Position numbers: made by a program. Source: a virus (lineage: Duplodnaviria > Heunggongvirae > Uroviricota > Caudoviricetes). Taken from it: 35,879 bases of DNA. Of the stretch, positions 12,001 through 15,000 are shown in pieces; the stretch's first letter is position 1, and every line of letters begins with the position of its first letter. The stretch lies in the IMG/VR virus record IMGVR_UViG_2548877009_000012. The stretch is one strand, 5' to 3'.

Positions 12001-15000
12001 ACTGGGAGAGCTGGCGGTCAAACGTTGGGCGTCAGGGTATGTGAGAATTTTTGACGAGGTAAATTTTCGATGGAAACCGTATTGCATGCACTGAAAGCGA
12101 TGGGTAAAGCCAATTCTGTTGAACTGGCGGCGCGGCTTGATATCAGCCGTGAAGAAGTTCTCAACGAACTGTGGGAACTCAAAAAAAATGGTGTTGTTGA
12201 TAAAACGGGTCACACCTGGTTTCTGGCTGTCGAAGGTGAATCCGGGGTAACCGAAGGGCAGGCACTACAATCTGAAGCGCCGGATGTGGTAACCGAAGAG
12301 GTCGCTCCAAAAGTTAGCGCTGACATGATGATTGAGTTTATCGCTCAGGAGGGGGCTAAAACCTGTGAAGAAATAGCGGGTAAGTTCGGAGTTACCACTC
12401 GTAAGGTTGCTTCCACTTTGGCGGTAGTAACAGCAACGGGGCGCCTGGTGCGCGTGTCTATCAAGGGAAAATTCCGTTATAAAGTGCCTGACGTCGAAAA
12501 CGGCGATTTGAGCGCGTCATCATCGCAGGATGAGAATATCACACACGAAGCAGAAAACAGCGCGTCAGGCGACGAACTGAATCGTTTTCCGTTGATGTCA
12601 GAGGGCACGGCAAAGGCCTGTACAGATGAGTTTATCCGGGATGTTCCGTCGTTCACCGAAAAATATGCTGGTGCAGTGACCCTTCCACCTCTACGGGCCG
12701 CCAGTCGTGAACTTCGTCGCGCCAAAAAACAGGTCCAGAAGTGGGAGCGTGTCTGTGCTGCACTACGTGAGCTGAATAAACACCGGGAACTTGTCATGCA
12801 GATTACCGATTCATCCAGCAGTATTGCATCGGAAAAGTGATAACTGGAGAGCTTATGGCAAAAGTATTTACACCCGAACAGCGGGAAGAACTGAAGGCAC
12901 GTATTGTGGAGCTCGTGCGCCTGAATGGTCGGGGAACGTTCAGGCAACTGGCTACTGAAACCGGAGTCAGCAAGACAGCTGTCAGACGTTTGTCCAGAGA
13001 ACTGGTTGTCAGTGGCGCTATATTCGACTCAGGTTATGGTTTATTCCCGTCTGATCAGGCGCGTAAGGACTGGCAAAATGCCCGCAAAAAACTCTCGAGA
13101 GCAAAGGCAAAGAAACCGGTTGTTATTGACCCTGGTCTTATCCGGGCATTACCTGATGGGGAAATCCGGCGCTACGACAGACGCTACAACATAATTTGTC
13201 GCGAGTGCCGTAACAGCGAAACGATGCAGCGTGTGCTGGCATTCTGGCGGGGGAGTGCAGAGGGATTGATGTTCTCCCCGTCGTGAATGACGGGGGCTTA
13301 CGTGTTCAGAAAAGTGATTCATATAGAGGGTGAATCTGATCTTTTTTGTTCACGTCTGGCTGCCACCATTGCAGGCAGAGTGAAGGCGTAGACTAAAAAC
13401 ATTTCGGTAAAACTCAGGATCTGGCTTGCCTCAATTGGTGTGAAAACTTCATCTGTATGAACTGCTTTATTGGCATCAATTCGTACAATATGAGCCCATT
13501 CCTTCATCTGTTCAGTGATCAGCCCTTTTTTGTAAATCATCTGAATACGTTGCGACAGCGATTCTTTTCCTGCTTCATCGCCGAGCAGTTTTTTCGTGGA
13601 GATATCGAGGACTCTGCGACAAAGAATTACCACTGTGTCGTACCGCCTCCTCTGTAAATCCTCTTTTGCCTCAACAAAAGTACGGTCTGCAACCGGGGGC
13701 GTATATTCTGGTGCGGTAATTTTTTTGACCGCAGGATAGATCTTGCGGAAACGGTACTGGCTATTTCCTGAAATCAGAATATCGAGGTCTTTTTTCTGGC
13801 TTTCCGCCATGGGGCCGTGATAGTGGTCTGATGGGATTTCAACAATAGCAACACCTCCTCGATGACAACTTCTGCATACAAAAGCGACGTTAAAAAGAGG
13901 TGTTTTTTCAATTTGTTTTTCGGCAAATGCCTCAATAACAGCTCGCTCTTTTAAACAGTGTGGGCATGTAATGTCAAAGGAGACTAAACTCATGGATATT
14001 CCTCTCGAAATTAAAGAAATTAACGAAATCATTGAGGTTACTGATCGCCCCGAGTTTACCCTCATGCGTCGTTATGAAACAGGAACCGACGAACAAAAAT
14101 ACATCATGGTTGCAGCATTGGCTGTGATGGCGATAGAAAGGGAGCGGAGGGAAAAGGACGTAATGGTTATTCCGGCGAGAAATGATTCACCGGATTTGAG
14201 ATGGCAGGATCCGGAGTGGGATGTGGCAATCCGGTGATTGATATTTCTCTGGGGTAAAGCGCCGCCAGAATGACGGCGCGGTGGTTAAGCATGAGGCGAA
14301 ATTTCTGCCGGGCGGTATTTTGTTGAGAGATGAGATACGTCAACTTCTCTTTCCGCTTTTTCAAGGCTCCATGCCGTCTGGAGACGAATCCATGAAGACG
14401 GAGTTCCACCCAGGACAGCAGCGAGACGAACAGCCATTTCAGGAGATATTGTCGCATTACCTGAAACCAGTCGCTGAACAGTGGAAGGCGCGACATCAAG
14501 CGCTCTTGCCAGTTCCCTGATTCCAATATTCTGATCTTCCAGAATATCAGCAATAATTTCTCCGGGATGAGGGGGGTTAAACATCGCCATTAGTGGTAAT
14601 CCTCGTAGTTAAGAATATAAGCATCGCCGTTCCGAAACTCGAATGTGATTCTCCAGTTACCGGAGACGGTGACAGACCATGTATCGGATCTGTCACCCTG
14701 CAACTGGTGCAGCCTGTACCCGGCAAGGTTAATATCATCAATGATTTCAGCTTGATCTATTACCTGAAGGCGCGTTCTCAGGCGTTTAACGTGATTGGGA
14801 TTTACGCCTGATGCATTTCCTGTTTCAAAGAAACGTTGAAGTCCTTTGTGTTTCCAGCTTTTTATCATGCTTGTTTCCTGTTGCGTTACGCGAATCATTA
14901 TAACAGGTGTTGTGATGTACGCAACACTGAATTTGACAAAAATAACCTTTCGGGGCTATATTCCTCAAACGCCAGCAAAATCTGGCGTCGGGATTGGCGT

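Follow-up and report, generated by a model that had tools for sequence, protein, structure and literature searches.

A stretch of 35,879 nucleotides from a virus of the Caudoviricetes (IMG/VR record IMGVR_UViG_2548877009_000012), called the window here in its whole length, is a Shiga toxin (Stx)-converting lambdoid prophage, and over the region of interest its left part matches Shigella phage 75/02 Stx at 99.9% identity. At 13319–14237 the window carries two genes that stand head to head with overlapping start codons: on the minus strand, a gene for a putative RNase resembling the immune RNase RAZR, and on the plus strand, a small gene of 81 codons. An earlier note, made from the sequence alone, had reported both genes and proposed the larger as a candidate single-gene defence or exclusion determinant expressed from the prophage. 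The features of the locus are as follows.

13319–13993, minus strand: RAZR-like gene, 224 residues, with zinc ribbon, variable insert, linker and DUF4145/HEPN RNase domain
13820–13993, minus strand: Cys4 zinc-ribbon sensor domain, residues 1–58 (C10, C13, C40 and C43)
13736–13819, minus strand: hypervariable insert, residues 59–86 (helix 61–68, strand 81–86), with no counterpart in RAZR
13694–13735, minus strand: proline-rich linker, residues 87–100 (P87, P95 and P99 invariant), which aligns with the RAZR linker
13358–13693, minus strand: DUF4145/HEPN-fold RNase domain, residues 101–212
13457–13483, minus strand: predicted catalytic motif R171-IDA-N175-KAV-H179 (R-x3-N-x3-H), translated RIDANKAVH
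13991–13994, no strand: CATG holding both start codons, which overlap by 2 nt, as read from the sequence
14000–14006, minus strand: Shine-Dalgarno GAGAGGA of the RAZR-like gene, 6 nt before its ATG and inside codons 3–5 of the small gene
13977–13982, plus strand: Shine-Dalgarno AAGGAG of the small gene, 9 nt before its ATG and inside codons 4–6 of the RAZR-like gene
13992–14237, plus strand: small partner gene, 81 residues, phrog_8371, with a three-helix core (residues 3–57) and a disordered tail
14259–14279, no strand: GC-rich 9-bp hairpin (inverted repeat) between the convergent stops of the small gene and higA

The minus-strand open reading frame (ORF) spans 13319–14065 and yields 248 residues from its farthest ATG or 224 from the ATG at 13993, with the N-terminus MSLVSFDITCPHC. 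The latter start is annotated in both GenBank and RefSeq (a 675-nt coding sequence), and its methionine, M1, is invariant across 32 aligned homologues. Because every homologue starts at this methionine, the 248-residue reading is excluded; the upstream extension was rejected also for an in-frame stop near 14075, about 80 nt further up. The plus-strand ORF gives 88 residues if read from an ATG at 13971, which lacks a Shine-Dalgarno; from the ATG at 13992 it gives 81 (RefSeq WP_000354190.1), and GenBank has the small gene at the same coordinates. The gene at 13319–13993, the divergent ORF, the overlapping ATGs, both Shine-Dalgarno sequences, the N-terminal CxxC...CxxC zinc ribbon and a position between the replication genes and the nin region had all been read off in the earlier note, and each was recovered here.

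The four cysteines of the zinc ribbon are invariant in 33 aligned homologues, and the CxxC...CxxC pattern is retained in 116 of 132 full-length family representatives. R171, N175 and H179 are likewise invariant in the aligned homologues, with [RK]x3Nx3H kept in 127 of the 132 representatives; both patterns together occur in 112 of these 132, which are the full-length members of the top 150 matches. An AlphaFold2 (AF2) model of the 224-residue protein, built on the family alignment (mean predicted local distance difference test score, pLDDT, 89.4), contains four strands, a short helix and strand, and a helical domain. The modelled strands at residues 4–8, 18–27, 33–40 and 46–52 form two beta-hairpin knuckles predicted to bind zinc, and there are weak profile matches to RPB9 zinc ribbons. 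In the C-terminal half, Pfam DUF4145 (PF13643, clan KNTase_C/HEPN) is matched over residues 118–197 at E=3.9e-9 (36.9 bits against a gathering cut-off of 23.1), so the domain that the earlier note had named was found by hidden Markov model (HMM) search, and PF13643 is present in all 83 homologue clusters. The protein has both the alpha-helical fold and the R-x(n)-H motif by which the HEPN superfamily is recognised. A search of NCBIfam returned no match for either the 224-residue or the 81-residue protein.

DUF4145 is a branch of the HEPN superfamily with a predicted role in defence or abortive infection, and zinc ribbons are among its listed fusion partners (Anantharaman et al. 2013, PMC3710099). 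The fusions to restriction and defence proteins that the earlier note had mentioned are documented in the same paper. The window protein shares with this branch a Pfam score above gathering and the zinc-ribbon fusion, whereas the published classification comes without a mechanism and most of the members described are fused to restriction endonuclease or helicase modules of restriction-modification systems.

A mechanism is available for RAZR (ring-activated zinc-finger RNase), the new name of PD-T7-4, a defence protein known since 2022 (Vassallo et al. 2022, PMC9519451) that consists of a Cys4 zinc ribbon and a DUF4145/HEPN RNase domain (Zhang et al., Nature 2026, PMC13017515). Expressed from its native promoter, the RAZR gene confers defence by itself, and the protein is not toxic alone, even when overproduced; it becomes active by assembling as a 24-mer around ~170 Å rings of phage portal or of the Erf-like recombinase Gp77, after which it cleaves single-stranded RNA non-specifically and brings about abortive infection (PMC13017515). 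R146 and H154 are required, as alanine substitutions abolish defence; the zinc-finger domain, compared by the authors with the RPB9 ribbon fold, is the most variable part and sets specificity; and autoimmunity is avoided since the host has no large protein rings (PMC13017515).

For comparison, the RAZR sequence was reconstructed from overlapping database fragments. The reconstruction has 219 residues, the length of PDB chain 9y9c_OA, places R146 and H154 at their published positions and matches the PADLOC PD-T7-4 model at E=1.3e-102. By BLASTP, the window protein is 27% identical to RAZR over 109 residues of linker and HEPN domain (E=2e-5), and profile-profile comparison (hhalign) gives E=1.6e-5. 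The family profile searched against PDB matches RAZR chain 9y9c_OA, with RIDsNgAVH over RIVGNQAVH, so that R171, N175 and H179 align to R146, N150 and H154. The BLASTP and HMM alignments begin at the linker, where P87, P95, P99 and E108-A109 align with P66...P79 and E88-A89 of RAZR. Both proteins also cover phrog_1305 near full length, ribbon included, at E=7.8e-63 for the window protein and E=9.5e-29 (residues 14–193) for RAZR. A single-sequence phmmer search of the window protein against PDB found no match, and a fold search with its model did not retrieve the solved RAZR chain 9y9c.

The two proteins thus share a length of about 220 residues, the order ribbon-linker-HEPN, the R-x3-N-x3-H motif, a variable sensor half, carriage on mobile elements and membership of phrog_1305. 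RAZR differs in its sequence (27% identity over linker and HEPN), has no insert, is directly preceded by a same-strand integrase and lacks a divergent partner. By sequence, then, we regard the 224-residue protein as a divergent RAZR/PD-T7-4 relative of the same architecture that present defence finders would not call.

In PHROGs, phrog_1305 bears the label 'DNA binding protein' under 'DNA, RNA and nucleotide metabolism', and the label has been propagated in RefSeq phage records NC_029120 and NC_025434. It probably comes from the zinc ribbon alone; given the RNase and defence role of RAZR, we consider it misleading and in need of revision. RAZR proper, in its Klebsiella and E. coli types (loci L104, 1393–3522, and L105, 1401–3477), abuts or overlaps an upstream gene for a 535-residue phage-type integrase on the same strand, which suggests that an integrative element, and not a lambdoid prophage, carries it as cargo.

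An HMM search over 1.84 billion representatives returned 3,358 matches to the RNase family at E<=1e-3, of which 215 clusters (at 50% identity) fall at E<=1e-30; most members have 205–230 residues. Within the family, mean identity is 66% in the HEPN half, 43% in the zinc ribbon and 24% in the insert. Among E. coli alleles, the ratio of nonsynonymous to synonymous polymorphism (pN/pS) is 0.02 for the HEPN part, 0.25 for the N-terminal 100 codons and 0.21 for the whole gene. The HEPN half is under strong purifying selection and the sensor half is hypervariable. One 70%-identity allele (L020, 4001–4675, from E. coli GCA_016734205.1, compared with window 13400–13990) has flanks that are 98–100% identical, while identity drops to 48–66% over roughly codons 31–131 and is lowest in the insert region; its sequence suggests that allelic replacement or diversification has affected only the sensor half. 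A conserved enzyme with a recognition surface that evolves fast would be expected to vary in this way, as RAZR does.

The RNase gene is carried by 48 of 5,426 complete E. coli genomes and by 12 of 50,697 phage records. Its relatives occupy known cargo sites of temperate phages, namely the replication/nin junction, the lysis/terminase junction and, in phage Cartapus, the cos-portal hotspot of P2. In all 57 divergent viral contigs with both flanks, the flanking 3 kb per side mostly code on the strand opposite the RNase gene (283 kb versus 29 kb). This counter-orientation is the arrangement expected of a gene predicted to be expressed by the prophage independently of lytic transcription.

The small gene was examined in 80 viral loci fetched with the RNase profile (19 close and 61 divergent), in which it was sought by tblastn. 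In all 19 close loci and in 34 of the 61 divergent ones it faces the RNase gene head to head with the start codons overlapping in CATG; a further two divergent loci hold truncated copies. Its homologues are 40–52% identical and lie beside RNase relatives that are themselves 40–52% identical to the window protein; in replication/nin-site loci of relatives, the small ORF is also present though uncalled. This result overturned an alternative in which the small ORF was an orphan backbone gene and the overlap a by-product of a cassette junction at 13996. A profile search with the small protein reached 53 viral contigs, 50 of which have the head-to-head RNase gene, and the three exceptions are a close E. 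coli orphan type. The two truncated remnants are still beside the RNase gene, on contigs that carry terminase markers, which would fit joint transfer of the pair followed by decay of the small gene.

All 15 divergent members match phrog_8371, a PHROG of no known function, as does the window protein over its full length (1–81 of 81, E=5.5e-56). A core of 53 residues, (S/A)DRPEFTLMQRYE..S.DQK..FV.ALIGKLIEQDR, is common to the small proteins, and the tails after it vary. Across 16 divergent representatives, variability by codon position is 0.36/0.27/0.56 for the small ORF and 0.32/0.22/0.61 for the RNase gene, and the five other frames of the small ORF are full of stops; by this periodicity and these stop-filled frames, the small ORF is a genuine coding gene. 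Its pN/pS within E. coli, 0.33, is inseparable from that of the antisense frame that shares its wobble positions. Identity of the small ORF tracks that of the HEPN half (r=0.78). AF2 predicts three helices (pLDDT about 90) and a disordered tail. No Pfam match was found for 15 members of the family, the profile search against PDB gave only a non-significant RFX1 winged-helix match (E=0.59), net charge across the family forms no acidic-mimic pattern, and a word-indexed protein search found only E. coli relatives of at least 81% identity. On the sequence evidence of pairing, the small ORF appears to be a conserved cognate partner in this clade.

At the 3' end of the small ORF, a 1-nt deletion (L016, 1221–1502, from phage PhiR12_3; also L039–L041 and L018) replaces the last five residues and gives a protein of 93 residues. 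Such variation of the C-terminal tail implies little constraint and fits the predicted disorder. An imperfect 30-nt inverted repeat (14167–14196 and 14228–14257, 73% complementary, 31 nt apart) spans the 3' end and stop.

At the junction itself the plus strand reads t-C-A-T-G-g at 13990–13995, with CAT at 13991–13993 and ATG at 13992–13994. The palindrome CATG is present in every E. coli and phage carrier examined, in the 70%-identity allele and in 19 of 19 window-type loci, as well as in 36 of 61 divergent viral loci, two of which hold only degenerate (truncated) small ORFs. A GGA or GGAG element occupies the Shine-Dalgarno place of the RNase gene in 16 of 16 divergent junctions, and RNase-gene codons G-I/L-L of the divergent pairs yield AAGGAT or GAGGAT on the other strand; in all junctions examined, each Shine-Dalgarno falls within codons 2–6 of the opposite gene. 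Relatives without a partner have AATG, GATG or TATG at the RNase start and mostly lie near lysis or terminase genes. The CATG overlap is more than chance.

Taking these observations together, we think it probable, though far from assured, that the locus is a two-gene head-to-head accessory module in which a RAZR-like immune RNase is joined with a control or self-immunity partner. The defence or exclusion role put forward in the earlier note appears strongly supported by RAZR homology, and counter-oriented, moron-like placement also speaks for it; the 'single-gene' part of that proposal is probably incomplete, given the conserved 81-residue partner. By analogy with RAZR, the RNase would be made in the lysogen and kept inactive until, on infection, its sensor domain binds to a protein of the infecting phage, perhaps a portal or recombinase that forms rings; oligomerisation would then lead to non-specific RNA cleavage, a stop in translation and aborted infection. 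The prophage encodes candidate triggers of its own, a portal (33976–35340) and RecT (2402–3187), the kinds of ring that trigger RAZR.

We infer a role for the small gene in control of the RNase or in self-immunity. It points along rightward lytic transcription, and from this geometry the transcript made on induction would be antisense to the whole RNase gene and would also encode the small protein. The two mRNAs would be complementary across both ribosome-binding sites, so antisense RNA and small protein together could silence or neutralise the RNase, and the portal and RecT rings of the prophage itself could form without triggering suicide. More speculatively, the phrog_8371 protein may be a dedicated inhibitor of RAZR-type RNases, with the CATG arrangement acting as an RNA-level toggle between a lysogenic RNase and a lytic antidote plus antisense RNA; we put this forward tentatively, as a bolder proposal that may well prove wrong. 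If true, it would be the first known inhibitor for proteins of the RAZR kind, would explain how a ring-building prophage can carry a ring-sensing suicide enzyme, and would make the orphan copies in ST866-type phages anti-defence genes.

Several observations weigh against this interpretation. Sequence likeness to RAZR is confined to linker and HEPN domain, and the zinc ribbons have no pairwise alignment. From the second CxxC to the catalytic arginine there are 127 residues in the window protein versus 93 in RAZR, with about 30 extra residues before the linker, so the ring-assembly mechanism may not transfer to this clade. In the HMM search against defence profiles suggested by the earlier note, the PADLOC PD-T7-4 model (PDLC04109) matches the protein only weakly (16.2 bits, E=1.3e-3, model positions 63–158 of 211, or 45%); 16 of 33 family members match it, at best with E=2.8e-7, and about half of the family score above the window protein. 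It is this weak score, with the partial link to RAZR, that leads us to file the protein as a divergent relative. As for the partner role, the fold of the small protein has no informative match (Foldseek: all E>3, no helix-turn-helix or other match), 25 of 61 divergent relatives and RAZR itself have no small ORF, and in 12 of 48 E. coli genomes the small ORF occurs without the RNase gene, with a GTG start and a junction exactly at 13996. The loci counted are, moreover, not phylogenetically independent.

Expression raises a further difficulty. Scans for a sigma-70 promoter of the RNase gene over 13994–14285, at two stringencies, found none that is convincing. The sole strong minus-strand promoter nearby (TTGCGT-16-TGnTATAAT, 14924–14897) serves higBA and lies beyond the hairpin at 14259–14279 (-19.4 kcal/mol, z -1.8), which has only three U after it on the minus strand and is possibly a partial terminator upstream of the RAZR-like gene. 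For transcription of the RNase gene, one has to assume either read-through or a weak internal promoter.

The alternative that survives best, unlikely as we judge it, is that a RAZR-like gene provides defence alone and that the small ORF is an unrelated early phage gene, linked to it by co-inheritance, with the CATG and Shine-Dalgarno sequences a frozen accident. The native-promoter, single-gene defence of RAZR fits this view, as do the relatives that do without a small ORF (RAZR proper, where it is absent and the RNase gene directly follows the integrase; Cartapus; and the 25 of 61 above), and the correlation with the HEPN half is as it would predict. The small ORF also survives without the RNase gene, from its GTG start, in ST866-type prophages. 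In ST866-type E. coli (L003, 2682–3182; also L018 and L019), the RNase slot holds a forward gene for a 166-residue protein (phrog_25397, of unknown function, no Pfam match), which may be alternative cargo at this site; about 300 bp of non-coding DNA and an 85-residue, GTG-started copy of the small ORF follow. However, 50 of the 53 small-ORF contigs have the RNase gene and the exceptions all come from a single close lineage of E. coli, the geometry of the overlap and the two Shine-Dalgarno sequences are kept down to about 40% protein identity, the terminase-marker loci still hold remnants of the small ORF beside the RNase gene, and the phrog_8371 profile search found no independent distribution.

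It is improbable that the pair is instead a toxin-antitoxin or addiction module, in which the small protein would be the antitoxin of a HEPN RNase toxin and the pair would stabilise the prophage with no anti-phage role. HEPN toxins neutralised by a partner are well known, and the HEPN-MNT toxins 5yep and 7ae2 (of the set 5yep, 7ae2 and 7ae8) are among the top structural matches of the 224-residue model; these systems share with the window pair the catalytic fold and a HEPN RNase restrained by a cognate partner. The small gene depends one-sidedly on the large one, in the manner of an antitoxin, and the locus lies within a toxin-antitoxin cluster (HigBA at 14285–14898, RelE/ParE or TumE in sister phages). 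The partner in HEPN-MNT systems, however, is a nucleotidyltransferase encoded in the same operon, as opposed to a divergent three-helix protein, and Pfam scans found no MNT domain anywhere in the locus and no match for the adjacent small gene, which is without a known antitoxin domain. Toxin and antitoxin are normally co-transcribed, whereas these genes diverge and their 5' ends are complementary throughout; a partner is missing from many family members, overproduced RAZR is not toxic alone, and the hypervariability of the sensor half suggests that an external ligand is recognised.

Slightly less plausible again is a two-component defence in which the small protein is a positive co-factor, whether adaptor, sensor subunit or transcriptional activator of the RNase gene. 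That the pairing is conserved and the translation signals are reciprocal would suit it, and the core has that weak, non-significant resemblance to the RFX1 DNA-binding winged helix. Yet the small gene faces the lytic operon and in a lysogen would need a promoter within the RNase gene, where none has been seen; many relatives have no partner, and Foldseek gives no helix-turn-helix or other match. That the 224-residue protein serves the phage life cycle (host shut-off, RNA processing) or is a zinc-ribbon DNA-binding regulator, as the phrog_1305 label copied in RefSeq phage records would have it, is very improbable against a gene antisense to lytic transcription in 57 of 57 loci, a C-terminal HEPN fold with an invariant catalytic triad-like motif, and the membership of RAZR, an RNase, in the same PHROG.

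The two-gene module can also be set beside other prophage and defence proteins. Self-immunity devices of prophage abortive-infection genes include sieB/esc with the sas antisense RNA in P22 and BstA with its aba element; the logic proposed here is alike, a suicide exclusion gene with an adjacent or internal self-sparing element, and there is no relation in sequence or structure. HepS, a HEPN protein of the Gifsy-1 prophage (PDB 9oik), is only a distant structural match, with likeness limited to the HEPN fold, and it is not known to have a paired small gene. DS-38 of DefensePredictor is an E. coli single protein with HEPN and zinc-finger parts, validated in defence and likened to PD-T7-4 by its authors; it was rejected as an orthologue, being WP_001313577.1, the product of a 1,101-nt gene (~366 residues).

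The remaining genes of the window are arranged as follows, from left to right.

Left part: integrase, YqaJ exonuclease, RecT (2402–3187), repressor, cro, cII
Onward: replication genes including a DnaC-like loader (11304–12044), DUF1627, DUF977, accessory cluster, antirepressor, nin genes
Within the accessory cluster, 14285–14898, minus strand: HigB/HigA toxin-antitoxin pair, immediately upstream of the module
Right part: Stx A (20012–20968), lysis and terminase genes, capsid-protease fusion, portal (33976–35340)

The RAZR-like gene and its small partner sit in the accessory cluster between DUF977 and the antirepressor; the replication genes (DnaC-like, DUF1627 and DUF977) are on one side and ninB on the other. 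The DUF977 protein directly to the left (12837–13286, plus strand) matches phrog_142, 'Ren-like exclusion protein' (E=1.9e-40), and GenBank names it LygF; the RNase cassette has its homology breakpoint within the 3' end of the DUF977 gene, near 13246. A Pfam match and the strong promoter suggest that HigB starts at an internal methionine near 14868 rather than at 14898. Sister phages carry other toxin-antitoxin modules at the higBA spot (RelE/ParE with a helix-turn-helix protein, ParD, TumE/HVO_A0114), which marks it as a swap site for such cassettes.

Rfam and tRNA scans gave no match within 13319–14237. Beyond higBA, on the plus strand, a near-consensus promoter (14933–14962) precedes Rfam matches to isrK (14969–15045, 74.7 bits) and C4 antisense RNA (15071–15154, 66.7 bits), and an ORF6N/P22_AR_C antirepressor gene (15207–15929) follows; the segment 14933–15929 is a P1/P7-style C4-antirepressor immunity module in a lambdoid Stx phage. 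Further plus-strand Rfam matches to small RNAs are sRNA-Xcc1 (16053–16142, 67.5 bits) and STnc100 (21326–21539, 195 bits), the latter directly downstream of the Stx A gene region.

The RNase gene alone is a relative of a kind known since 2022, with a mechanism since 2026, and is of modest interest; what is new is its head-to-head partner with overlapping starts, which is not mentioned in the literature found on DUF4145, PD-T7-4 or RAZR. The family forms a large sister clade of RAZR (more than 200 clusters at 50% identity, E<=1e-30) in temperate phages, the Shiga-toxin phages of E. coli and Shigella among them, and it is missed or scarcely scored by current defence finders. Since such a prophage makes portal and recombinase rings on induction, phages that carry the gene face a self-targeting problem that the published logic of RAZR does not address. 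The small partner is a candidate solution to this problem and may also be a naturally occurring inhibitor of immune RNases of this class. The RNase gene, in turn, may shape superinfection exclusion among Stx phages, as well as the success of phage therapy and of typing phages on lysogens.

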